From: Macrostomum lignano
Lineage: Eukaryota
Direction of reading: 5' to 3'
Assembly (NCBI GenBank): GCA_002269645.1
Contig: NIVC01001052.1
Coordinates: forward strand, 62,001-126,000
DNA: 64,000 nt
The notes under the pieces are model-generated. The model was not told the origin of the DNA and did not search any database. It saw nothing but the letters and a program-made list of their open reading frames with translations. Position numbers and translations under genes: made by a program. The stretch's first letter is position 1, and the number at the start of each line of letters is the position of its first letter. Positions 38,701 through 57,100 of this stretch are shown here, piece after piece.

Positions 38701-40744
38701 AAGTCCAGGGAGCAGCTGAGGCTTTTCATGCTCAAGTGCTTCACTGACCTTAATGCCAGTGAGTTCTACTGCCATGGCTCTGCCTAGAAAGGTGCAGAGG
38801 GCTTTACAGCAATCATGGGGCTCTCTGACAAATGGTCTATGCGGGTTCCACATAAGACCACCATCTACATTGGCCTGCATCAGCTGACTTTCCTCTGATG
38901 CAAGGAAGGTAAGGCTGAAGCTAAGCTGACTAATCACATCCACCTCCTAAAGGAAAGGATGCGGCTATCCAAGACCTGCGGTCAGTGGATTCCACCCTAA
39001 TAAGGCAGTTTGCGCTGCCAAATCCACCCGCACTATCGCAAACCTGCCCGCAGCACTTGCAAGTCATGCCTGGTTCAGTGTGAGCTGGCGTAGGCCTGCA
39101 ACCTCAGTGAATACCTGGAGTGTCAATGCGCCAAAAAGACCCTCCTTAAACAAGATTGTATGGGTCCAGAAGTAATGGTATAGCACGTACTGACTAGGCT
39201 GAGGAATCTGACCATTAGGCAGAAACTGCCGCCTACCATAACCTGCCCATTGGCTCAGTTTAGGACTCCCCCAATGTCCATGCTGCAACATAGGATGAGG
39301 AGGGTGAAGCCAAGCAGTCCAGGCTCTCACCAGCCACAGGCACCACCAACTTCTCCGCGCTACACGCTGTGGATGATGAGGAGCCTATGGAGGTCAGCAG
39401 ACACTATTTCAGAAGAGATGTTAGAGGAGCTGCTACGTGAATCCCCAAGCAACTAGCCATGCCTAGTAATGCTACAGGGGTCGAATGTCTGCAGATAAAT
39501 CTGCAGCACAGCATGGCATCGTTGGTAAACCTCATGAGGCAGCCGAGCGTAACAAGCCAGGTCTCATCCTAGTCTAAAAACCTTGGACTGTTAAAGGAAG
39601 GCCCCAACATGTATCTGGTAGGTATCAGTGTCCAAGAGAAGGAACACCGCCACCTAGAGCTTGCATCTACATGGTGAAGTCATTCAATGCTTGGCTCAGA
39701 GGAGACCTTTCAAATGGGGACCTCTGCGTCATTCAAATAGAAAACCTCCTACCAGGAAAGACGGCCCTGATTGCCTCAGTTTATTTACCAGGCAACAAGG
39801 CTGTTGTCTCGGAAGAGCTTATCTTACTAGTGGAACTCTATTCTACCAGAGACTACGAGCTAATGGTTGCTGGCGCTCAACCTCTGTCTTTGATTCAAGG
39901 TCATTCTTTCTCCCCAAGAGGAGGCAAACAACCACTACAATCCACAGGAGGTCCATTGCTACATAGACGGATCCCTAAAAAATGGTCTCTCTAGCTTTGG
40001 GGTCTAAATTCTCATCAATGGCCACATTCTTGCCATGCATGCCCAGCACACTAGAAGACTCTTTACTGTCTTCTAGAACGAGGTCCTTGCTATTAGCTCT
40101 TACACTGTGAGCTTTGCAGCAAAAACAAAACACCTCTGGTAAAACTATCGTTTTTCACTTTGATAGCCAGGCGGCTCTGCTAGCTCTCTGTCATACCACT
40201 ATGGCCTCTTGGACAGTCTCTAACTGCATCCGGATGCTCAATACACTGGGACGCAAAAATGCTATCTAGCTCAAATGGATCCAAGGCCATGCAGGTTTCC
40301 TTGGAAATGAGCTGGCCAACTTGCTTGCAAAGCAAGGGAGCGGCAGCTCTCTTTAGGGACCTCTGCCCTTGGCTCTAATCCCTGGGGCCACTATCAATCA
40401 TAGCATTGATGCCTGGGCCTTGCCCTGCATAGGGACAAATAGATGAACCTGACCACCTGCCGCCAATAGCATGTGGCAATCCCTCATCTATCCCGAAAGT
40501 TCCGAACTGTCCTGAACCAAAGCAGGAAGGACATCCGAGCTCTTGCTATGACCCTCATGGTTCATGGTTGCTTTGCTAGGAACTGCTTTCTTGAGGGCGA
40601 AATCTAGAATGAGCTGTGCCCATTTTGTGAGTACGACAACTAAGATGCTCAGCATTTTGTTTGTCAATGCCCATTCTTCACTAGGGAGTGGCTTAACCAC
40701 CTCGGTCCAAACCCATCTATCAATGATATTTGCAGACCTGAGAA

Positions 40745-41515
40745 TAGTGTTCTACCATAAGGAGGTACCATGTACCATAGCCATAGCCATAAGCAATACT
40801 ATGGCTTATTCCAATTCTCTGTATTCTATAGCCGTAGGGACCCCAATATTACCATATTCCCATAGTTCCCATAGCCATAGCTGTAGTCTTAACAAAAAGT
40901 CTAGAAAACAAAATATTTTGAATCAAGAAGATAACCTAGTGCTTAAAAAACTGCAAGTTAAGTTAGAAAATAAAAGAAACACTTGATTGCCTTTAAGATT
41001 ATATTTCGTCTTTTTTCAGAGCAACAATACTTAATTGTTACTGAAAGTACTAATGCTGAGCTTTTTCACATTAATAAAAATTAGAGTTTGCTAGTGTTTT
41101 ACTGTACTTTTTTATGTATTTTTAAAAGTTTCTAAGTTGATAATATAGTTTACTAAAAGTATATTTGTTTTTACTCTACCTGTTTCTAATATTTTTTTCA
41201 TTTTTTTAACATTAAAAACTATGGCTATGGCTATAGGAATCTACGGAATGTGACAACAACTACCATATTTCTATAGTTAGTTGTAGCCATAAGAGTAGCT
41301 AGCTACTGTAGGCATATCCATAGCTGCCATAGGCACCTATTTTATCATATTTGCCATAGAACCCCGTAGCCATAGCTACGGCTATGGCCATAGCTATAGC
41401 TATAGCTATAGCACAGTAAAACACAATATGGCACAGTGTTATTTTTTTTTACTGTGTTATAAAACACAGTAAAACACAATTTAGTAGCCATAGCTATGGC
41501 TATGGCAGAACACTA
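40745..41515 (+). mobile_element. hAT-type MITE, copy 1
   Basis: Termini TAGTGTTCT...AGAACACTA; perfect 8-bp TSD CCTGAGAA (40737-40744 / 41516-41523). Confidence 0.92.
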
Positions 41516-41663
41516 CCTGAGAATAACTCATAGCTCCTCTGGTTCTTTTGGGCAACTAGACGAGCCTCTTTCTTTCCAAACAAAGAGAATGCTGCAGGAC
41601 ATACTGGTGGACTACCCTGACTGGCCCTGTGCATTTGCCAAAGTGGGTCACTAGGGTTTAGCA

Positions 41664-42312
41664 TAGTGTTCCGCCGTAGCCATAGCCTATGGGATCCTAC
41701 AGCAAATATGGTAAAATAGATGCCTATGGCAGCTATGCCTATGGATATGCATACGGTAGCTAGCTGCTCTTATGGCTAGGACTACGAAAATATGGTAGTT
41801 GCTATCACATTCCGTAGATTGCCATAGCCGTAGTTATTAATGTTAAAAATTGAAAAAAGATTAGAAACAGGTAGAGTAAAACAAAGATACTTTTATTAAA
41901 CTGTATTATCAACCTAGAAACTTATAAAATATACCTAAAAAAGAACAATAAAACACAAGCAAACTCTAATTTTTATTAATGTGAAAAAGTTTAGTGTTTA
42001 AATACTTTCAATAATGATTAAGTATTGTTGCTCTGAAAAAAGATGAAATACGTTCGTATAATCTTACAAAGACAATTTAAGTGTTTCTTTTATTTTCTAA
42101 TTTAATTTGCAATTGTTTAAGCACAGGGTTATCTTCTTGATTCAAAATATTTTGTTTTTAAGACTTTTTGTTAAAACTATGGCTACGGCTATGGGAACTA
42201 TGGGAATATGATAATTTTGGGGTCCCTATGACTATGGAATATGGAGAATTGGAATAAGCCATAGTTTTGCTTACAGCTACGGTACATGGACCCTCCTTAT
42301 GGCAGAACACTA
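41664..42312 (-). mobile_element. hAT-type MITE, copy 2 (same family, opposite orientation)
   Basis: Termini TAGTGTTC...GAACACTA; 8-bp TSD GTTTAGCA/GTTTAGCG; body is the reverse complement of copy 1. Confidence 0.9.
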
Positions 42313-43097
42313 GTTTAGCGGAATAGGTAACTCTCATTTCCCCATTGTGTGTTCGGACTGCCCTGCAGCTAAGTCAAGTCAAGAAAGCATTTGCCATTGG
42401 TTCTTTAAAATAAAAAAAATCCTCAAAATGAATTTACCAAAACATTATAATACTTTGTCAAAACATTACTTTACCAAAAATTGCTTTGTATAGCTATATA
42501 ATTCTATAAATAGACCCTAGCAAAATTGTTATTTTTATGGTTAACACAAAAAAACAAATACTAGGCCCTATCCTTTCTAAATTAAGTACAAACATGCAAT
42601 AACAAATAATTAAAGGCTGTAAAGTGCAAAATAAAATATAGTAGCCTATTAGGCAATTGCATTTAGCATTAGTATTAACTATGTTAGTATTAGTAATTAA
42701 AAATGTAATTTAAATATACTGTCACAATGGTAGGCCTACCTTATACTTTTCTAGCAGTTCTTGTCATTGACCTTAGCAGGCTTAGCTGGCCAAGAAACTT
42801 CATGCTAATGAATGAGATTTCTTCACATTATGCCATGACAATAAAAATAGCCACTTTGCTTTTTAACATTATATAGTTAAGATTAAGATGTGGTACAGCT
42901 TGCACAGCTGCGCAAGAAAAAATTACCAAAAAATTTGTCTGCACCATGCAACAAAACCCAAGGCAGTTTTGTGCCACCTATTACTCTGACCAATAAAATT
43001 TTGCATTGCAAATACAATTTACTTGAAAGTGAGGTCGGGGGTTTGAAAGAAAGTTCTGGGCCGTGGGGTTTTAATTCGGCTGACCAATATCCCCCGT

Positions 43098-43398
43098 GGT
43101 AATGGCTAGAGTTCCAGCCTTTCTAAACCCGTTTTCTAACAGCTAGGGATCCGGCAGTGCCGTATAGAAGCATATAAAGACTGCTACTGCTAAGAACATA
43201 TCTTAAGAAGTCTGAATATTATTAGAAGCATCTCGTCCCGAATCTTATCATATCGTCTTAAATTTTAATCTAGAACAAAATCTCAATATCAGCCACCTTT
43301 AGAAAGAAAAATATAATGTTCTATCTATATTATATTGGCACTGCCGGATCCGTAGCCGTTAGAAAATGGGTTCCGGTGCCGGAACTCTAGCCATTGCC
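43098..43398. mobile_element. Mutator-like MITE of about 300 bp
   Basis: About 63-bp imperfect TIRs (GGTAATGGCTAGAGTTCC...GGATCCGGCAGTGCC); 9-bp TSD ATCCCCCGT/ATCACCCGT. Confidence 0.75.
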
Positions 43399-44467
43399 AT
43401 CACCCGTGGCTTTAATTATAGAACTGGCAGGTGCATACGTGCGCAAATGTATTAAATACAACGTAAAGTAAAGCCAGAAATACATGCAGCGCTACACCAC
43501 TGCATTCATTACTGGGCTGCAAGGCCGTGTTTTCCGAGGATAGAAATAGAATGGCCTCACGAGTGGGACACGGCCGCCCTGTTAATTCGTTCGTTCCAGC
43601 CGTTCGAATCGGTGCGCTTCGGCGTTTCAAACAAACTTAAACGAAAACCTCGGCTTGCAGATGACGGGGAGCTCCGCTGCTGAGTTCCTCAGGCTCAGGG
43701 GGAGGGTAGCTGTGGTCGCGGCTGAGCGGTCTAGTTTTGCCGACGTTCAGAAGGCCGAATGCAGAGATAAGGGAACTTCAAAATAAGCTGGATTTGTCGA
43801 GAGTCTTACTAATAGTAGTAGGTCGCTGCCACCACCGCGATTGTGCGCGGGAAAAGCTCTAAAGCTTATGAATAGCTTGAGTTCGCTCTAGCGCTTCTCA
43901 GTAGACCTCTAAGGGTCAAATAATGCTTCCGAGGTCACGAAGGCTAGACACCGTTTTCACACACAAATATTAACTTGGCCGGAGTAACTAAGTGGCCGGT
44001 TGAGCTGGATCTTATTATTGACGGTTATTAAGGCAATAGTTTCACGCACAGTAGCAATTGACTAAACTTAAATCTTAATCGTTAAACTGATGGGCGAGGC
44101 GATCGGAGCTGGTCGGGTCGGGATGCTGGGCTTACAGGTAGGGTCAGTAGTATTATACGATACAAAATTGCCAGCAAACCGTTCTCATAATTCAATCAAT
44201 TTAACCCTTTATAATCAGTGTGAAATGAATCATTTTCCCTTCACATCGCTCGTCTTCACTTCGCTCGTGTTCATTACCGCTCGACTTCACTCCGCTCAAC
44301 TCGCTCCGCCCATCCTCGCTTCATTTCGGTCAATTTCCCAATTTCACACTTCCAACACTTCCAACACTTCCAACACTTCCAACACTTCCAACACTTCCAA
44401 CACTAACAAACACTCTATAACCCCAGGCCGCGCCGCAGGCGCGAAGGGTCTTTTTCTGTTACTAAAA

Positions 44468-44971
44468 ATGAACCGAGTTTACACCTTTTCAGTTAGTGAT
44501 ACTTTTGAGACCGTTGCTAAAAATTCAGAGATTATAAAACAACATATTTTGAATGGAATAATTGATGAAGTTTATTTAAAATATGATGACAAAACAGAAC
44601 TAAAACTTTATCCGTTAGAGTTGGATGGTTTGTATGATCTAGAACAAGAGGATGAGTTAATATTTCAACTTGGCAGATTTTTAAATTCAGACGATTGGGA
44701 GGTTCGTTCAGAAGATTCCGACTCAACAAATAGTTCATACGAAACCAGTGATTCGAAGAACGAAATTGAAATTGAAATTGATAGGTTGGTTAGACGAATA
44801 AAAGTACTTAGGAAAAAAATAAAATATTGTTTAAGTTATCCTGCCGACAGTGAAGACAATTGGTGTTCTATAAAATTTGAAATTGAAAAGGTTATTATGC
44901 TTAAACAATTACATGCTTTAGTTTTTTATAAGTGCTATAGTTCATCAATATCGAACTCAAAACAATTATAG
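44468..44971 (+). CDS. Polinton left-arm ORF, 167 aa, acidic, unknown function
   Basis: The ATG lies at the inner end of the left TIR (ACTAAAAATG); open to 44971. The upstream part of track ORF 44090..44971 is TIR read-through. Confidence 0.65.
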   Translation: MNRVYTFSVSDTFETVAKNSEIIKQHILNGIIDEVYLKYDDKTELKLYPLELDGLYDLEQEDELIFQLGRFLNSDDWEVRSEDSDSTNSSYETSDSKNEIEIEIDRLVRRIKVLRKKIKYCLSYPADSEDNWCSIKFEIEKVIMLKQLHALVFYKCYSSSISNSKQL

Positions 44972-47900
44972 TCAACGTCAAATAGTAAACTGTTATAATA
45001 TTCAATTGAGTGTTCATGCTGTGGTTTGTCATCAAAATAGTTTTTAAAGAATGGTTTCATAACTCCGTTTTTATCCGGTTTTTCTCTTTTATATGTGTTT
45101 ATCGTAGAAGTATATGTTTTTGATATTGTTGAGCCGCTTTGGGGGATTGTTATACCACCTTCAAACGATCGTTTCCACGGAGCATTATTATTTACTTTTA
45201 TTGATTGTCCATCATATAAAGTTTTAAACGATGCAAAATTGACCTTATCATTTGCACATCCTTTAAATGTTTTTTTTTCTCTTCCATATAATAAAATCGT
45301 CTTTCAACAAAAGACAATATTTAATTTTAGGAGCGATAAAATATCCGAATATAATTCCACCCTCGCCATAATTGTTTTTCCTTGACTTAAATTATTTCCG
45401 ACATGCCCGTTTTTATTTAATGTGTCCCAATGTTTTTTATGTATATATAACGAATCGGTGTCGCCGTAATAAATTTATGGAGTCTTTGAGCCTCTATAGA
45501 CGTGATAAAATTATTCATGATCCTTCTTGAATGAGCTAAGATAAATATCCCTAATTGCGCCGGACAAAGGCCTGTTGTAGGATTATCGTCGTCATCTACA
45601 TATTCTTGTGTGTCTTTCTTTTTTTCAAAATAAAATAAGTCATCACATATTTTCTCATAAGACTTGATTGTGTCGTCGTATTCTTTTTTTAATGTTTGCA
45701 AATTCCAGAGATGAGTTGTGAAAGTATTGTCTCTTTGAACTGTTTTACCATATAAGGAATTTAACAATGTTTTTACCAATTCAGAACCCGCCTCATTATT
45801 TTCTTTTTTAAATACTTTTCTCATTTCAAAAAGGTTTGTAATATAATTCTGAAACGGAGAGAACTCGTAATTTTTTTCATATACAATTCCGCTGTATATC
45901 TTTAATATTTTTCCACCCATTCTTACAATTTCTTGTATGTCTACGGAACATAAGGTATCGATTACCTTTCCGTTTCTAAACCTATTTAATGTTTTTGTTT
46001 CATTTGCTTTTGTTTCCGGATTATAAAATTTCTCTTTATCTTTCGATGGGAGATGTTGAAGAAAAACGCTGGTGGGATTCTCATACATAATCTTTAAAAC
46101 CGCTGTTTTTGGTCGAAAGGTTTGTGAATTAAATTGTGTCAAAAAATCCTTTTCCTCACTTATATCAAAAACTCTGCCTGTTTCTGCTCTTGGATATTCA
46201 CTATCCTTATCAGACATGGCGGATGGGTACAATGAGACTCCATCAAAATTCATTAAGCAATCTGATACAGTACCCAATTGGTTTTTTAGTTTAATTGCGA
46301 TTTTCTTTTTTTCTTCCATGTCGCTTTTGAGATAAGTTGATATAACCTCACATGGCTCGCTTGTTGGTGTTTTTAAATGATCTTTTACGATGTCTACGAT
46401 TGTTTGAAAACAGTCGCTTTCGTATTTATTTATTAATGCAAATACTCTGCCTCCTTTGACTGCGTCCCGCATAAACCTTCTTATATAAGGATTGGTATGA
46501 GAGTGAACCGAAAATTCTTTTCTTAATAGTGTTTGGTATTTCGTTTTTTCAAGTTTGCTCAAGTCAAAATAATCTTCGATTTTCAACGGAGATATTATTT
46601 CTTTAACTTTTTAAATGTAATTACTTTTTCTTTTGTCTTTAGGTATTGTTTCATTTTGTCTTCAACTCTAACAAAATCTTTAAACCAACATTTTAATGTT
46701 AAACTCGAACATGTAAGAGTATCAAACATTGTCATTCCTCCAATTTCATATGCTATTTCATTATACTTATGAATACAGGCACATAAAGAAATAAGATCAA
46801 ATTGTAAATATTCATACCATTCATCCATGCGCTCTAGGTAGTCGTGTTCGGTAATGTCATGAACCATTGAGGTCTTGCGCAAATCCTCTCTAATTGTCAT
46901 TGACGAGCAAAACCTTTTTAAACTCATTGAGGCGTGTTGATATGAGCAAAGCATCGTAATGGTTTGTTTCGAATCCTTGTGATTCTTCTTCTTATCTTTG
47001 TTTATAAACGCCCTAACCGCTTTTGACGCGTAATCGTTTACAAAAGTGATTGATAATATTTCTCTTGGGGTTTTAAGAATTTTAATTGGTTTTATATTAC
47101 AAAATAGTGGTATGTACGAATCGAAGCGGGATGAGTTGTGTGCGATCAAAACAATCTTTTTTGACCTAACTGTACCAAGGTGTTTAAACATTTTTCTAAC
47201 ACAGTCAACCTTAGCTCCGTCTGTTTGAAAATCACAACCGCGATGTGATATCAAGATCTTAGTTAGTTTCTTTATTGTCTCTGGGCTTCCGTTACAATTA
47301 TTAGAAAAGTCGTTATAGTTTAAAAGACCAACTGCATACGGGCATGCCTTGTTGATTATAATTTAAATATGTTTCAAAATCAAATATGTATACATTTGAT
47401 TTATTGGGATTTGTGGATGTGTTGAACATTTTTAGCTCTTTAACATTTTCAGACGTTGGGTTTTTAAATACTACTTTATAATTGTCTTTTATCCGATCGA
47501 GGGCGATTCCTCTTTGTTTATTGGATATAAGGCAATAATGACCAATGTGATAATCGGCTGTGTGATAGTAATTTAATAGCCAGTCGTGGTGAATCCCTCT
47601 TTGAGACTTCGGTTCAATTCCACGATTATTAGGATTATACAACCCTATGTTCAGATTAAAATATTCATTGAATTTTCCAATTCTTGAATTTGTCATTAAA
47701 CCTCTTTGGGTTCTTGAGTCGTACAACCAAGCACAATATTCGTCTTTGGATGGGGCTTTATCACCATAAATAAATTGAACACACTTGTAGAAACAATTTC
47801 CATCACTAGGTATGTAACAGTACTCGTCTTGATATTCACTAATTTCACACATGACGTTTGTGCCCATACCCTGCTTTGACCTTTCGTGTTTAAGTGTAAT

Positions 47901-48537
47901 TTCATTTGGTGTCATTTTAAGTCTTCCGGAAATCACACTAAATTCATGTCGTAGTTTTCTACCAAATGTTTAAACCAAGCTTGAAACTGACTTATATTAT
48001 AAAATGTTGCTAGGTATTGATTAATCTCTTCGCGATCATCTCCGGTTTTGTTATAAAAATATTGTACTCTTGCGTTTGTAATTTCAACACTATATCCGTT
48101 TGAAAGTTGGGTTTCAATAAAATCTAGGACGTTCTGCATTGGTTCAAATCGATAAACCCTAATAAACTCTTCTAGTGGTTTTTCATCCGATTTATTCCGC
48201 GGTTTCCGACGTATTGGTTTGGTTTGGTAGGGTCCTTTTGGTTTTTTTCTAATTCTGCTATTCTTTTTTCATATTCAGCCTTTTCTATTAAACGCTTCAT
48301 TTCATATTCTGCCCTTATATTATTTGCTAATTCTTTTATTTGCTGATCTTCTATTTGTTTTTCTCTTTGTCTTTGTCTTTCTCTTTCTCTCGCTCTCTGT
48401 CTTTCTCTTGCTCTCTGTCTTTCTCTTTGTCTTTGGCGCTGTTCAATTTGTTCAACCTGTCTTTGTAATCGATTGAACTGTTCGCGCTCATTTGCAAGAA
48501 GTTGTCGAATCTGATCTGGGGTCAGTCTTTGTTCCAT
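44935..48537 (-). CDS. polB: Protein-primed family B DNA polymerase (pPolB) with N-terminal coiled-coil/terminal-protein-like region and vOTU domain; split by about 7 frameshifts as assembled
   Basis: vOTU IPSDGNCFYKC...GHYCL; ExoI FDFETY; ExoII AHNSSRFD; ExoIII YLQFD; KGGRV; PolA FDGVSLYPSAM; PolB KTLLNSLYGK; PolC YYGDTDS (45471-45451, shifted frame); KKTFKG; WKRSF; stop at 44935. Confidence 0.92.
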
Positions 48538-48569
48538 TTTATAGAATAAAATTTATATAATATTTATTC

Positions 48570-49551
48570 GAGATCCGCTTTCGGTAACAGTAGTCCGCTG
48601 CCCATAACGTTTGCATTTAAGAAGATTCCTGAACCTGCTTTTGGTCGCATTTCGAGATATAATCCACTTCCGTCGTGTTTTTCAATTACGTTAAAATCTT
48701 TTTCCAATTTATTAAAAATCTTCTGAACGGCTGGCCTAAAATTAGCTCCAATATTGTCAAAAAATCCTTTAGCTTTCTCACCCGTTTTTTCTAAAGTTTG
48801 CCCAAACTCATGTAGTTTATCTGCGACAACTCCGCTTCCTTGGGTTGTTCCTTTTAAAATTAAACCGTCGCCGTGATTTGTACCTTTTAAATTAAACCTT
48901 TTCCGGCTGCTAATTTAGCTTCTGCATTTTCTTTTTTGTTCTGCTGTTGCTGAGCTACTATTAATTGTATCTATAAGTTTTTGTTTGAATTGTGCGTCCT
49001 GCGTTATTTGCTGTCTTTGAAATTCAGCATCTCTTTAAGCTTTTTCATCCGCTGCTTTTTTGTCATTTACTGCCTTTGTGATTCCGGCGCTCCTCCCGCT
49101 ATTCCACCGGCTGCTCCTATTCCTGCAAAAATTATTGGGAGCAAAGTTGCGAGGGGTAATATACCCCCTTCTTTTGCTTTTAATTCAGCTAATTTTTTCT
49201 GTTATCGTGAATTCTTTTGGCTGCTAATCCGGTTGCTCCGGCTGCTCCGAGACCCAAAAGTATTGGTAAAATGGGTAGCAACCCGCCGTCCTTTTTAGTG
49301 TGAGTCTCCAATAAAAATTTCACATCGGAGTCTGTTAGCCTATAGTTTCTACCGTGATTCTTAAAGGATATTGGCCTTCCTTCTTTTGCATATTTTGAAG
49401 CAAGTTTAAATGTATCGATATCATAGTCAAGTTTTTTGCCTAAGCGATACAATCTTTTTAACATTGCGTGACTATGTTTGTTATCGTCTAGATTTAAAGT
49501 ATCTACAATTTCTCCTATAAAATATAGCCGATCGTTATTAACTGAGTCCAT
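48570..49551 (-). CDS. Polinton core/cement-like precursor with two adenovirus pX-like GG-cleavage/hydrophobic motifs and repeated GxGL/I motifs (frameshifted, one in-frame stop)
   Basis: KKDGG-LLPILPILLGLGAAG and, after a 1-nt shift, KAKEGG-ILPLATLLPIIFAGIGAAGG; downstream GKGLI, GDGLIL, GSGLYL, GSGIFL, GSGLLL. Confidence 0.65.
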
Positions 49552-49561
49552 TTTTATATTG

Positions 49562-49972
49562 TTAAAATTTCTTTAATCCTTTTCCGCCTTTAATTGTGGC
49601 TAACATTTTATTAAAATCCTGAATATCTGTATTACTTATTGGTGTGCTTTTCGTGGGGGTTTCTGTTGGTTGTGCGGCTTGAGTTGCTTCCTGCGCTAGT
49701 TTCAAATCTTTTATTGCTTTTATTTGTGAGAGGGTGTCGTTAAATTCTCTCAATTTCTTTAGTTCTTCTGCTGCCCTAGCTGCTTCGATTCCGCCCTTTA
49801 CAGCGTTTGTTATAGATCCTGCTGCAGAGCCTGCTTGGCCTATAAGACCCATATTATCTTTAACGAAATTTGCTGCTGTTCCAACCACATCAAAAAGACC
49901 CTCACCTCGGTATTCAACTGGGACTCCTATTTGAAATTCATTCAGATTTTGTATATGTGTAACGTGTGTCAT
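49562..49972 (-). CDS. Polinton small structural-like protein, 136 aa
   Basis: Intact ORF starting just inside the right TIR; GEGLFDVVGTAANFVK amphipathic segment; VKGG and IKGG-KGLKKF resemble adenain-type cleavage sites. Confidence 0.65.
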   Translation of the reverse strand: MTHVTHIQNLNEFQIGVPVEYRGEGLFDVVGTAANFVKDNMGLIGQAGSAAGSITNAVKGGIEAARAAEELKKLREFNDTLSQIKAIKDLKLAQEATQAAQPTETPTKSTPISNTDIQDFNKMLATIKGGKGLKKF

Positions 49973-50935
49973 TTTTGTCTATTTTTAGTAACAGAAAAAG
50001 ACCCTTCGCGCCTGCGGCGCGGCCTGGGGTTATAGAGTGTTTGTTAGTGTTGGAAGTGTTCGAAGTGTTGGAAGTGTTGGAAGTGTTGGAAGTGTTGTAA
50101 GTGTGAAATTGGGAAATTGACAGAAATGAAGCGAGGATGGGCGGAGCGAGTTGAGCGGAGTGAAGACGAGCGGTAATGAACACGAGCGAAGTGAAGACGA
50201 GCGATGTGAAGGGAAAATGAGTCATTTGACACTGATAAAGGGTTAAATTGATTGAATTATGAGAACGGTTTGCTGGCAATTTTGTATCGTATATACTACT
50301 AGGGTCCCCTCGAATATCTGGAGCTCGGAGTTCGGGACGGGTGAAATTCAAATGAGAAGGGGGGTTCCAGTCGAGAGTCTGGCTGGAAAGGAGGGGCGCA
50401 GACTCTTAAACGTGCTCTTTGAGCCACCGGGAGGAAAAAGGGCTTACCCCGGGTGGGACAGGAGAGACACCAGGTGGGGAGAGAGGAGGGTACACCGGGT
50501 GGTGACGAATAAACACCGGGTGGACCCTAGGGAAAAACACGGGATGTTTGTAAAACAAAACATTACGGGAGGTGGGAAGGGAAATTTACATTAGGCGAAA
50601 AGCGGATTCCTCACAGGGAATGACGTCAAAAAAATGCGCAATTCACTGGGTGAGCAAATCCACTCGGCGGAAACAAAGTTTCGTTCGGTGGGAGCAGTGG
50701 GAGGCCGCGCCTACCACAAAAGGCCTGTCTAATAGCCGTTTTCTGTTTTCCAGGAACTTTTTAAGTTTAAGATAGAAATAACAAAAAATAATCTACAAAT
50801 ACTTTGTCCGTCTTTACATACTAAAACCATACTTTAGTTTAAGCAATAAACCAAACCAGTATCATTATAACTTATGTTGCATAAACATAAGCATAAACAT
50901 TATAACTAGTATGCATAAAACATTAGCCTTATTGA

Positions 50936-51773
50936 GAAATGAAGGCCAACACCAACATATAAGAAATTATTATAATAGCCAACGCGTTTCGACACAAACG
51001 CAAACTCCCATTCCTTGGAGTCCCGTCCCTGAGTCTGGAAAAGAAGCTTAAAAGAACTTTCTTGAAGTATTTCAACTCTCGGGTCATGGTTGTGTTTCAG
51101 ACCGCCAAAATTGGCCAGTTTGTTAGCAAGTTGAAGTCGAAGGCCCCTAGAGCTCTGTCTGCTGGTGTCATCTATCAATTTTGTTGCTCTGGTGATCAGA
51201 GCATTTCCTACATCGGAAAAACCAAAAGGCACCTGTACACTAGGGCTAGGGAGCATAGAATGAATAACTCTGCTGTGCATGATCACTTGCTTAGTTGCAA
51301 TGCCGAGCATGAGCCGACTGAGCTTTTCACTGTTTTGGATAGATGTAGATTTGATGGCAAGCTCAGAGTGCTGGAAGCCTTGCACATTAAGCATCATAGA
51401 CCTAGTTTGAATACTCAGCTTGCAGGTGGAGGAGCCAGTTTACAGCTCAAGGTTTTCTAGGCTTTGGTGTGGGTTTGAGGCTCTCTCCCCGCCAATATTG
51501 TTTGCTCTGTGGTTGCGTTTTCTGTGTGATGGCCAAATAATTTATTATAGTTTCGTCTCTTAATGTACAATTATCGACCGGACTGAACCCATTTGTCTAT
51601 TGCCATGTACAGTTTTTGATTTTCTCTATTTAAGTATACTGAACTGTGAATCATGAGTGCAAGCCCTGAAGATGACCGCTTGTGTCGAAACGCGTTGGCT
51701 ATTATAATAATTTCTTATATGTTGGTGTTGGCCTTCATTTCTCTATTATTTATTAAACGAGCATCGCTACCAG
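50936..51773 (+). mobile_element. 5'-truncated Penelope-like element with inverted 5' segment
   Basis: GIY-YIG endonuclease C-terminus (ORF 51062..51460: GVIYQFCC..SYIGKTKRHL..R..EH..LEALHI..RPSLN); 63-bp inverted repeat 50935-50997 / 51680-51742; flanking direct repeat ATTAGCCTTATTGA (50922-50935 / 51774-51787). Confidence 0.88.
51662..51700 (+). ncRNA. Minimal type I hammerhead ribozyme in the PLE pseudo-LTR
   Basis: Stem I AGCC/GGCU, core CUGAAGA, stem II GAC/GUC with 7-nt loop, GAAA, palindromic ACGCGU stem III; predicted cleavage after GUU at 51696. Confidence 0.75.
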
Positions 51774-51949
51774 ATTAGCCTTATTGATTCTGGCAACAAG
51801 ACAAGACATTTCTGTATAATGGAATACCGCCCTAGCTCTTAGCAGTGTAGCAAACCTGGGGACCTTGTTCTCGTTCGATTAGCTCTAGTAACTTTAACTG
51901 GATACTAGTACTGTGCTTCCAATTTTGATGAACAACAATAGCAGCAACA

Positions 51950-52760
51950 ACAACAAGGGTGCGTCAGATGGTGCACGCCGCAGAGCCTGGGAGCTCCGCG
52001 CCAAACAAAGTCCCCCCGTTAGCAGTGTCGGGCGCCCCAGCGTCGCACAAGAGGCAGTCCACGTATCGACGAGTTTGGGCCTGACCCCACTAGAACAGGC
52101 CCACTTGTAGAACTCCTGATGAAGTGTCGAACAGGTCAAACAGGCCGACCGCCGTCACCACAGCAGCTCGAGAGTGTCGCAATACAGTGCCATGACAGCA
52201 TCAATTAGCTGCTGGGGTACCCGGTAGGCTCGAAGGACAAAGGGAAGCGCGGCTCTCAGCACCGAGTCAAATGCATTTCGAAAGTCAACGAAGAAAATGA
52301 TCGGCGTAGACTGCATGGCGGATGCGCGCCTCCTCGATGACACGGCAGAATGCGAGGATCTGAGGCACTGTACTGGGGCCAAAATCCGTTCTGCTCGTAC
52401 CGCAGGTCCAGCACCGACTGCAGACGATCGAGCAGCAGCCTGTTGAAGAGATTCGCGGTGCAGGACATCAGCGAGATCCCGCAGTGGTCTTCTTTCCGCT
52501 TTGTCCCTGCCTTCTTTGGGGTCGGCACGAGATGCGCGACGGTCAACTCGGTGGGCGCGGGGCGCCGGCGAGCACGGCGGCTCATGACGCCTGTGACCTG
52601 GGAGGCCACATAGCGGAGCCGCATCGTCGCGACCGGGACTTCGCCGGGGCCGAGCGCCTTGCCACCTGATGTTTTTCGAGCGAACAGCACAACGTCCACC
52701 GTGGTGACTGATGGGCGCAGAAGTCCTCCTCAGCTGGGAGCGGCGTGTCCAGTGGAAGCG
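51950..52760 (-). pseudogene. Degenerate non-LTR reverse transcriptase fragment (RTE/CR1-like)
   Basis: VPTPKK..CGISLMS..NLFNRLLLDRL..QNGF and FVDFRNAFDSV..LRAYRVP in shifted frames. Confidence 0.82.
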
Positions 52761-54158
52761 CAAAGCTGGCGGGCAGCGGCGACGCGGGCGCGTTTACGAT
52801 GCCGGCGAAGAAGTCGCGCAGTTTATTCTTGCGCTTCTCCGGGGTGTCGCCGGCCAGGTTCAGTGCCGGCGCCGGAACCAGATTCAGTAGTTCATGTACA
52901 TGTATGCATGCATGTACATGTACACTATAATAACATGTACGTTGTTACGTTTGACTGTCAGATAATTCGCAATGCGTCGCTTCTACGTGGATATTATTTT
53001 TTACGCCACTATTGCCGTATCGTTTATCAATTAAAACGACTTTTATAGATTTTTTGCTTGAAACTCATACTGTACAAACTATAGAATAGTAGCTACTTGA
53101 GCATGATATTTCATGAGATGACAAATTAGCTACGGCATAATGATGATGAATTAGAACCGTTTCAATTCACACATGACGTACATGTACCATGTCGACATGG
53201 AATACGCAGGATGCACAGACATGCAATTTCCGATGGTTGGAAAAATTAGCAATATACTAATCGAAAGCTGAAGTTGCTTGTATAATTGTAATTAAAGCAT
53301 GTTTTCAAGCATGTTGATAAGGATTAGTGCAGGAGAGAGATGGACTGGAATATATGTACAACACGCTTTCATTTCACATTATAAGCTAAAACAATACCAA
53401 AGGGATTACATAATCAGATGAGCGAGAGATCGGCTCTGTTATTGGCCGTAATGTCACATTAAAGTTGATTAACAAGAACAGTTTGTAATTAAATTGTATT
53501 TAACTAAGCATTGGATTATACTTCAGTAATTAGCTAAATAAAAAATATCCGGAATTTGATTTATAACAAATCAAACAAAACAGCCGGATCGATTAAAACA
53601 ACTTGAGCAAGTTATAGAAAAATCAAATACTTTTTTATCAGTTCTGAAATTCATTTGTAAAAAAGTCCTGCTGCAGTAATCCTTGAAGGAAGCGTGCCCA
53701 TGATTTACATCTAGTACGTATTCAGTCGTATGTAAATTATAAGCAGAATAAATATAACTTGAGGGAATTTACTACAATAAAAGTTAACTGGCAACAGTAT
53801 CCATCTACTGCTTTCCAGGGCAGCCTCCGTGACTGTTTTATCGATCCATCGATCGCAGCCCTTAAAATTTTTAAAGGATAAAGCACAGAAGCACCTCAAA
53901 AGTACAAGTTATGAGTCAATTTTTAAGCGACTGTTCAGCTACCCAACAAATTATCGCTTTTGATCCCCTTCAGGACCCACATATATTGTCTATTGGATAA
54001 ACTGACGCGCATATACAAGGCTGGAAAACTGAATTTAATTTTTGTGAGCTATCCCATCCCTGATATCTAAGAGAGTCGATCAATTTCAATCATGGTTCAA
54101 TTCCCAATGCTAACACATGCGCTAGAAAACACACAGCCCGCGATAAACAGCAGGCTAG

Positions 54159-57100
54159 TTAATGTTGATCAAGACGAGCATCAATCTTGGGCATCAGCAT
54201 AAGATTGAGATTGGTTTCGCCAAAGAATGTTCTCACGGAGCTCGCATCCGTCATAGCAAAAATGCGCAGGGCGTCCCCGGCGCGCAACTCGATCCAGTCC
54301 ACAATCCGACAGCTGTTTGTCCGCTGAGCGTCGCAGCTCAGCACAGTGTCTCGGCTGTTCAAGCGAATTTCGAATGACACATTACCGGACAATCGAGCCT
54401 TGAGCAGGTAGACACCTGTAACTCGGACGATCAAGGAATCGTTCACGACTCGGAAAGTGTCAGACAAGTTGCTACAGTTTTGCGCTGGTATTTGCTCTGA
54501 CAAACGGACGAGCGCCAGTGGATTGAAGCAAGTTAGCGGGCCAATTGCGCTTAAAGCTGCGGGGATCGAGTAAATAACGCTTGGCCCATTAATACTCCAG
54601 AAGTACAAATAAACTAGCACCAGCACCAGGGGTGCCAGCACACCAAAGTGACATATATTCAGGCGCATAGAGACAAAAAACACTTGTTAAAATGGTAAAA
54701 TTCTCTTACCATCTGGTCTGATTTCATCGTCACCCACTACTCCGACGCTTATCTACAATATTTAAGGTTGCAATCAATGGAGACATTTTGCATGCGTAAC
54801 ATGTCATGTTAATACATTATTTAACTACATATAGCGTAGAGGTATATGTGCTCAACAAAAGGTATTTTTAGCTACAACTGAAAATCGATGAAGCGTTAAA
54901 TAAATAGAACATATAACTTAGACCTACATGTATGATTGACATGTATGGGCTACGGTATTCGATACCCATATAGAAAGTTCCTGGGTTGGATTCCTACATA
55001 ATGCTCTACTCCAGGGCTCGGAAAACTGAGGCCCGCGGGCCACCGGCCTTCGGATCCTTTGAAACTTCGCAATAGCAATCCGGCCCACTCAAGGTTTGTG
55101 TCTCTTCTCATGCAGTTCTTTCTCTTTTTCTCGCTCTTCTCTCTCCCCTCTCCTCTCTCCCCGTCTCTCCCCTTCATCTCTTCTCATCTCTCTCCTCTCT
55201 CCCCTCTCCTCTTTCCCCGCCTCTTCTCTCTCTCTCCTCTTCTCTCCCCTCCCTGCCTTCCCTACTCTCCCATTTTCTCTCATCTCACCTCTGATCTTTT
55301 ATCCTTTCTAGTTTCCTTTCTAGTTTCCTTTCCATAGACTGCAGCCATAAGCTGTATTTTCTACTGGTTTTTGAGGTAATATGTTTGCTGACCCCTGCTC
55401 AACTCAAAAAGAGAGCCAGGGCTGGCCGATAGACAGCCTGTGTACTTAATCTGATACAATTAGCAGCGATATAATTAACCAAAGCCAATTAGCAACAACT
55501 TACCCTTGGCAGCAACCGTGTTCTGGGCGCCGCAGTTTCCACAGCCTTCTTGATTTCGCACGGTTTCTTCAAGCGACTGCCGCAGGCCCCGCAGGTGCAG
55601 GCAATGCTGGCAATCAGTATGCAAAACGCAATCACCGAACACATCTTTGGATTAGCTAACTAAAAGAATTTGTCCTATTAGACACTAATTGCTAACAGTT
55701 GGCTTGATTGTGAGTTGTTAAATTTGGCGGCTTCATCTCTCAATTCCATCAACTTTTATACAAATTTGAGCCTGTCAGCAAAGGCACCAACTTGTCTATT
55801 TTTATCCCGGCAAAAACCAAAATTAATCAAATTGCACCATAAGATACGCCAGATTCGAAAATTCAAGGAACATTTGTACGCTAAGGTTTTGTTTACATTT
55901 TCATGTAGACATGCGAAATAAGCGAAATTTGTGCGCCAGTGCCTCCTTGTCCGCCCACTGCATCAATGTAAAAATGCGATAGAAAACCTCATTACGGAGT
56001 AACTTCGTTCCTATTTTTAACTTCACGAAGTTTTCAAACATGAAAACTACATGTATTCAATTATAGTGGTAATTTTTAGTATCTGGACTAGCAATTTGCG
56101 CAACCCCCCGTTCGGGGAGGCAACACAGAAACGAAAAAAAATAGACGAGTAATTTGCATAAAATTCACATCGGTTTTGACCTTGTACAGTCATTAGTATT
56201 AATTCTTACGGAAATTAATGATGTTTAAAACTAAAAAACATATTCACACTGAAAGTCATTAAATATAGCCTCAGCCATCAGCATCCACTATATTAGCTTT
56301 AACTCAAAGCATCTGAGCAGCCCCATGAGCCACAGAATTTCAGCATCTCCCTCATGAGTTTCGACATATCAGCAATTCCGCCATAAGCCTTGACATCTCA
56401 GCAATTCCCCATGAGCCTTGACATCTCAGCAATTATCATTGACGTCTTAGAGATTCCCGGTCATGAGTTTTGAAATCAAGCTTCTTTGATGAGCTGAGTA
56501 TACATCTTGTAAGGGATGCAATTTCAGCTAGAGAACTCAATGGTTGAGAAGAAAAATGTTTGCCAATGCCTCAAAGATTGCACATTTTATCCAATTCCTA
56601 CTAGGATCTGGAAATCTATGAAAAAAAATTGAAAAAAAGCTATATTTCTTGACGAATGTGTTCCGCGGTCCTGACTTAGTCCGAGACAAAGCAGGGCGTT
56701 ACTTTATAAAATTTCAGTTTAGTAAAAGTCTGATTGCTTGTAGAGCATGGTAGAAATTTTTTACCTCGACTGGGTAAAGAATGCAGGTCATGGCTGAGGC
56801 CCGGATAGGAGAGGAAAGGAGAGGAAAGATAGAAGAGAGAAAAGTTAAGATAAGAGAGAAGGGGAGAGAAGATAAAAGAGAAAAAAGGAGAGAGAAGAAA
56901 GAAGGGGTAGAAGAGAGAAGAAGGGAGAGAGGAGAGGGAAGAGAAGAGGGGTGAGAAGAGAGGGGAGAGAAGAGAGGAGAGAAGAGAGAAAGGAGAGAGG
57001 GGGAGAGAAAAGAAGGGAGAGAAGAGGGGAGAGAGGAGAGGAGAGAGAAGAGGGGAGAGAGGAGAGGGGACAGAAAAAGGGTGAGAGGAGAAGGGGGAGA

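Follow-up and report, generated by a model that had tools for sequence, protein, structure and literature searches.

Whether a short element with perfect ends, a polymerase gene and hardly any spare DNA is a replicon in its own right or the remnant of something larger is the question raised by a 64,000-nucleotide stretch of the Macrostomum lignano genome (assembly GCA_002269645.1, contig NIVC01001052.1, positions 62,001 to 126,000 of the forward strand; hereafter the window, in whose numbering bare coordinates are given). The original prediction, made from the sequence alone, described here a miniature Polinton with the self-replication module only, and offered three explanations: (a) a polymerase-autonomous satellite or linear-plasmid-like parasite, (b) one segment of a bipartite Polinton, or (c) a one-off internal deletion. 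It also named the observation that would speak against an independent element, namely a single copy colinear with a full-length Polinton of the same genome through one clean deletion. This is the arrangement that we found, and the element is in all probability a dead Polinton copy, deprived of its middle two-thirds by one deletion, and not a new satellite or segment.

The element and its deletion junction

The long Polintons of this genome align to the element as two colinear blocks, 44146-44773 (628 bp) and 44764-50300 (about 5.5 kb), and with three of them (C13, C506 and C734) the three values obtained for coverage of its 6155 bases were 6093, 6125 and 6155. The blocks meet in a 10-bp word, AATTGAAATT, which five donors carry at the left break and six, with an exact or near-exact match, at the right break. 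Between both words the long copies hold 10.4-11.5 kb, and the block missing from the element comprises the integrase, major and minor capsid, ATPase and protease genes, together with fibre-like and accessory open reading frames (ORFs). Apart from this one junction, the element is colinear with a full-length Polinton of the same genome; with two colinear blocks, one junction and, as described below, one insertion site, explanation (c) is the one that the data bear out. Since the deletion joint fused two small ORFs, the ORF of 167 amino acids (aa) that had been listed as an orphan turned out to be a fusion of two family ORFs across the junction: its residues 1-102 match the 104-aa left-end ORF of long copies (89% identical), and its residues 100-156 match residues 61-117 of the 117-aa ORF converging on pPolB, the polymerase gene (84%). 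The features of the locus are the following, beginning with the junction (TIR, terminal inverted repeat; TSD, target-site duplication).

44764..44773: deletion junction, 10-bp microhomology AATTGAAATT, with five left and six right donors
44140..44145, + strand: left TSD, AGGGTC, shared together with the left flank by contigs C4519 and C1053
44146..44469, + strand: left TIR, 324 bp, with AGTAGT tip and a 9-bp tandem array
44468..44971, + strand: 167-aa chimeric ORF, an in-frame fusion to which the left-end ORF contributes its N part and the ORF behind pPolB its C part
44938..48537 (approximate), - strand: pPolB pseudogene of the PF03175 type; weak OTU-like match
near 48220, 47940, 47350, 46630, 45490, 45380, 45280 and 44940: breaks of pPolB, with in-frame stops near 46613 and 45477
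48567..49551, - strand: second core-like ORF, interrupted here from about 49190 on; its long-copy counterpart has 328 aa
49562..49972, - strand: first right-end ORF, open over its 136 aa, with 93% identity to long copies and without a family match
49981..50300, - strand: right TIR, 320 bp
50301..50306, + strand: right TSD, AGGGTC, shared together with the right flank by contigs C3225 and C893

The element thus runs from 44146 to 50300 with AGTAGT at both extremities, and its two TIRs agree at 314 of 320 aligned bases, with two gaps. The AGTAGT termini, the TIRs of about 320 bp and the perfect 6-bp TSD were correctly recognised at the outset. Long TIRs and a 6-bp TSD are as in a Polinton/Maverick, whereas 6155 bp falls short of the 13-25 kb of such elements, the parent family being mostly of 16-19 kb; the element is therefore a derivative of a Polinton/Maverick member and not a complete member.

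The polymerase gene had been regarded as full length. It does have the full span, but it is interrupted by frameshifts and two in-frame stops. The ORF listing gives pieces of 121, 68, 200, 198 and 351 aa and no single coding frame; tblastn with a 1205-aa polymerase of the family as query covers the full length in six segments in shifting frames; and a codon-level comparison counts nine frame-disrupting indels besides the two stops. What remains is recognisable as a protein-primed PolB gene (PF03175, E 2.1e-16), as a pseudogene only, and of an OTU domain there is just a weak Peptidase_C65 match below the cut-off (E 0.009). Judging by its sequence, pPolB is a candidate for the Alpha adintovirus polymerase type, a class name to be read as a lead; the nearest named polymerase, 94% identical, comes from M. 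lignano. Both of the core-protein-like ORFs noticed earlier were located, the second one (weak Adeno_PX match, E 1.4e-4, below the curated cut-off) no longer intact. In agreement with the original prediction, no sequence for an integrase, ATPase, protease or capsid was found in the window: a tblastn search with 15 proteins of the family matched just pPolB, the two right-end ORFs and both halves of the chimeric ORF. The element itself accordingly has no rve integrase, packaging ATPase, major and minor capsid or protease. The dense packing described for its ORFs is real, with 10 bp separating the two right-end ORFs and about 30 bp ahead of pPolB; the convergent tail-to-tail overlap occurs also in long copies and is hence inherited. 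Immediately to the left of the Polinton lies a 300-bp inverted-repeat element resembling a miniature inverted-repeat transposable element (MITE), at 43097-43399, with arms of 36 bp and 22 bp.

One insertion site and a decaying polymerase

A pattern spanning the junction occurs twice in 764 Mb, in the window and on contig C3225 (control, 0), and 2 of 40 scored BLAST matches cross it. Both junction copies have the same TSD and right flank. C893 agrees with them in TSD and right flank, C4519 and C1053 agree in TSD and left flank, and C4519 overlaps C3225; the shared TSD and flanks identify the junction-bearing contigs as copies of one insertion. Two junction-bearing and four TIR-bearing sister contigs, considered as extra copies, were rejected because of their common TSD and flanks, and several insertions of the same structure at different TSDs were not found. 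The window and the sister contig, which have the same junction, differ by 65 substitutions over about 5.9 kb. Duplicated loci are expected in M. lignano, since three subgenomes have been reported for it (PMC10733133).

The sister element is split by a later insert of about 24 kb at a position matching window 44633/44634 (C4519 from 25869 onward and C3225 from 48859 onward). The insert starts with TC, ends with a hairpin and CTAG, has no TSD and contains a nested 17.9-kb Polinton; we take it to be Helitron-like by these hallmarks. Identity to the sister contigs is 99.8% in the right flank (window 50063-55458), against differences of about 1% in the element and of 1-6% per bin in the left flank (window 38795-44140). 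This change of identity near the right TIR suggests either a recombination boundary or a collapsed assembly.

Between the pPolB of the window and that of its sister we counted 7 synonymous and 41 non-synonymous differences, with a ratio of non-synonymous to synonymous differences per site (pN/pS) of 1.4, as compared with 0.09-0.17 in comparisons against or among long copies. The gene is thus constrained within the active family and has drifted neutrally since the duplication of the locus; given the pN/pS of 1.4, the frameshifts and the stops, the retained polymerase is not under purifying selection. One frameshift is common to both copies and the remainder are private to one of them. In this decay the gene resembles most Mavericks: among the vertebrate loci of these elements, 96% are degraded (PMC8097293).

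The parent family and its two polymerases

A search of the genome with the TIR returned 55 matches from 40 scored candidates, and an exact-motif census counted 79 TIR ends genome-wide (control, 0). These ends form 23 inward-facing pairs, 12 of them at 16.0-18.9 kb, 6 at 24-42 kb and 5, each of a different size, under 12 kb; complete elements of 16-19 kb are therefore the commonest class (12/23). The polymerase census agrees: for 23 of the 39 markers of the window-type polymerase the contig also contains the far-side TIR, which lies within 5 kb of the marker in the window alone and at least 11.4 kb from it in the others.

Integrase, ATPase, capsid, minor-capsid-like and protease-like ORFs are present together with pPolB in all seven long copies fetched over both halves, most of which have some breaks themselves, and an eighth long copy carries the same gene set. 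The integrase matches Pfam rve (E 1.3e-7, slightly below its curated cut-off) and the ATPase Pfam Pox_A32 (E 5.1e-7). A 490-aa ORF folds like the major capsids of mavirus, iridovirus and Sputnik (best Foldseek E 3.5e-10, from a low-confidence model with a pLDDT of 50), which suggests that it is the major capsid, and the Atlas leads agree with this predicted assignment. Pfam gave no match to the long-copy ORFs assigned as capsid, minor capsid and protease; the latter two are presumably a minor capsid and a protease, by position and motifs. A PDB sequence search brought nothing useful. The gene content of the long copies is the standard Polinton set (PMC4028283, PMC10748475).

Between the integrase and a 223-aa ORF lies a variable slot whose small genes differ from copy to copy, one of them with a weak RE_Eco47II match (E 8e-5), and the start of the integrase ORF gives a weak phospholipase-A2-like match (L042:4934-5440, L046:4669-5232 and L042:5847-6995 for both observations together).

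Other short copies, of 4.1 kb (C393, L047), 3.0 kb (C1040, L048), 7.8 kb (C578, L088) and 11.3 kb (C3209, L049-L050), each lack a different block, and their sizes are unique among the 23 TIR pairs. C393 retains the integrase and core genes only, and C3209 and C2121 (9.0 kb, L108) retain virion genes without a polymerase. The rearranged copies C87 and C2121 were considered as a mobilised short class and rejected, having one TSD and being 99.8-100% identical. The short copies are a scatter of independent deletions around the complete element, not two segments.

With many genomic copies, the right-end genes gave a match and pPolB none. A second class of Polintons, 17-18.6 kb in length, was found on contigs C77, C283, C1776, C151, C1549, C2379 and C926 (L092-L107). 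Its 1324-aa polymerase (L094:2471-6445) carries an Endonuclease_7/HNH domain at residues 487-538, has no PF03175 match and is 22% identical over 164 aa to the window type; its markers number 120, against 39 of the window type. The integrase, capsid, ATPase and core genes of the second class are mostly 83-98% identical to those of the window's family, and in both an integrase tree (16 rows) and a core-gene tree (20 rows) a single second-class clade was rejected by the approximately unbiased test (p-AU 0.003 and 0.0002, respectively). Since the classes are intermingled in these trees, they exchange genes. The names of the two polymerase classes serve as leads.

The TIRs of the two classes have in common the tip and the inner 40-100 bp and differ in the outer ~250 bp. 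The TIR type mostly follows the polymerase class, with two exceptions: C2834 (L120-L121) has a window-type left TIR, a second-class polymerase and a second-type right TIR, and C2322 (L126) a second-type TIR with a window-type polymerase; both may be recombinants or assembly chimeras. The window-type TIR motif was found at most 9 kb away on the core side in 27 of the 39 window-type polymerase markers, and six further window-type markers that were fetched had a window-type TIR in three cases and the other type in one, with none seen in two. In the long copies of both polymerase classes (e.g., L041, L096, L098, L106), each TIR repeats its own tip in inverted orientation about 230-310 bp further in, by which each end may be able to fold back on itself.

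Polymerase swaps are known from nematode Polintons, with pPolB1 and pPolB2 (PMC10748475), and from Alpha/Beta hybrids (PMC8502044). As in the nematode elements, two very distant polymerases occur here in near-identical elements of one species, with an HNH-type domain in one class; the nematode TIRs are reported as conserved across classes (PMC10748475), whereas in this flatworm the outer part differs and mostly tracks the polymerase. The second class is probably a more interesting finding than the element itself; well over 100 related Polinton copies, with two polymerase classes swapping integrase and core genes, constitute a natural data set on origin recognition in terminal-protein priming.

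Origin of the short element and comparison with known systems

The course of events that we regard as probable begins with a complete insertion, which then lost its middle in the chromosome by a microhomology-mediated deletion, after which the locus was duplicated and decayed. A 17-18 kb Polinton/Maverick of the abundant resident family would have inserted once by its own integrase, producing the 6-bp TSD. For what followed integration, and for the repair pathway, we infer that a double-strand break was repaired in the chromosome between two identical 10-bp words about 10.5 kb apart, by microhomology-mediated joining; this deletion would have removed the integrase, capsid, ATPase and protease genes and fused the two small ORFs. 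The locus would later have been duplicated, giving alleles or homeologues, and the copies would have decayed independently in the absence of selection.

Several observations weigh against this history. The pPolB breaks, with one exception, are private to one of the two copies, and the gene was maybe nearly whole at the time of the deletion; moreover, 5 of 9 one-base break sites lie within runs of at least 4 identical bases and are possible assembly errors, the two stops and the multi-base indels not being of this kind. The divergence from the closest long copies at synonymous sites is about 17-20%, and 33 of the 79 TIR ends could not be paired. At both ends of the window's element, the TIR is a variant without the ~78 bp that hold the inverted inner tip copy in long copies; this variant is found at 6 ends genome-wide, all of the window's insertion and none of a long copy, and the direct parent is thus not in the assembly. 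Finally, no full-length allele of the element turned up at this TSD, and either order of deletion and insertion agrees with this result.

The same deletion could instead have occurred during extrachromosomal replication, yielding a defective-interfering-like genome that was replicated by its own or a helper pPolB, was inserted a single time by a helper integrase and has been dead since, a course that we consider unlikely. It would account for two TIRs sharing a private variant exclusive to this insertion, for a deletion older than nearly all pPolB breaks and for the retention of both origins and of the polymerase, and helpers are plentiful, with markers of two polymerase classes (39 and 120). 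However, the private variant shows only a prior extrachromosomal replication of the inserted molecule, as is assumed for any Polinton, the other short copies have lost arbitrary blocks, pPolB or integrase included, and the junction is found without a second insertion. It is doubtful that a Polinton genome with a then-working polymerase was integrated by a helper integrase acting in trans on its TIRs. The provision of integrase in trans, postulated in the original prediction, is unneeded if the deletion followed the insertion and could still apply if it came first. In the latter case, the Polinton integrase would work in trans on defective genomes, and the locus would record, in an animal germline, an instance of Polintons complementing one another in trans.

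Explanation (a), a family of polymerase-autonomous satellites or linear-plasmid-like parasites, is compatible with the gene content and the intact ends, but the genome censuses of TIRs, junction and polymerase did not support it: the junction is present at one insertion site, only 1 of 23 assessable polymerase copies is short, and pPolB is a broken, neutrally evolving pseudogene, all of which make such a family very improbable. We give as little credit to a deletion created by the assembly through repeat collapse; no piece bridging the junction appeared among the 32 listed of 1473 public contig pieces, which are fragmented and give no verdict, but the same junction stands on two contigs that differ by the substitutions reported above. 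Among the public runs listed for the element, none was of RNA. Explanation (b), a bipartite Polinton, is the least credible of all, for although C3209, bounded by TIRs and with its own TSD, is a near complement (integrase, capsid, ATPase and protease, no pPolB), and C2121 is a pPolB-less 9-kb copy with the other TIR type, the anticipated TIR-sharing class without pPolB amounts to C3209 alone, whose junction occurs once and cuts through two ORFs and whose TIR is not the window's variant, with no recurrent partner segment and with complete elements as the main class.

The element still shares with the animal Polinton/Maverick group (Alpha adintovirus polymerase type; PMC8502044, PMC4028283) the AGTAGT-tipped TIRs, the 6-bp TSD, a PF03175-type pPolB and a possible OTU-like stretch, and its parent family has, like animal Polintons, an rve integrase, an A32-type ATPase, a putative double jelly-roll capsid and a length of 16-19 kb. 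Unlike animal Polintons, the element is short of 10.4-11.5 kb, with all integration and virion genes, and its pPolB is a pseudogene. In the accessible literature searched, we found no description of a polymerase-only Polinton satellite or of the Polintons of this flatworm. Non-autonomous Polintons are recorded in Repbase.

Cytoplasmic linear plasmids, transpovirons and bidnavirus segments (PMC11161782) also have a pPolB between inverted terminal repeats and no capsid or integrase; these, however, are persistent replicons with a working polymerase, whereas the element is integrated, confined to a single site and broken, and, unlike them, it aligns over nearly its whole length to complete Polintons of the same genome. 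It also resembles the degraded Maverick fossils (PMC8097293), the Ds-del elements (PMC3260210) and the MITEs made by microhomology (PMC3814204), in which the ends are kept, the middle is lost at a microhomology and the reading frames decay, with the difference that MITE and Ds families have multiplied, whereas the element is confined to one insertion site. The element is a further copy of a known kind, an internally deleted and dead Polinton derivative, and of little weight in itself; its value is that of a warning, as one deletion can yield a tidy 'minimal replicon' with perfect ends and a fake orphan ORF.

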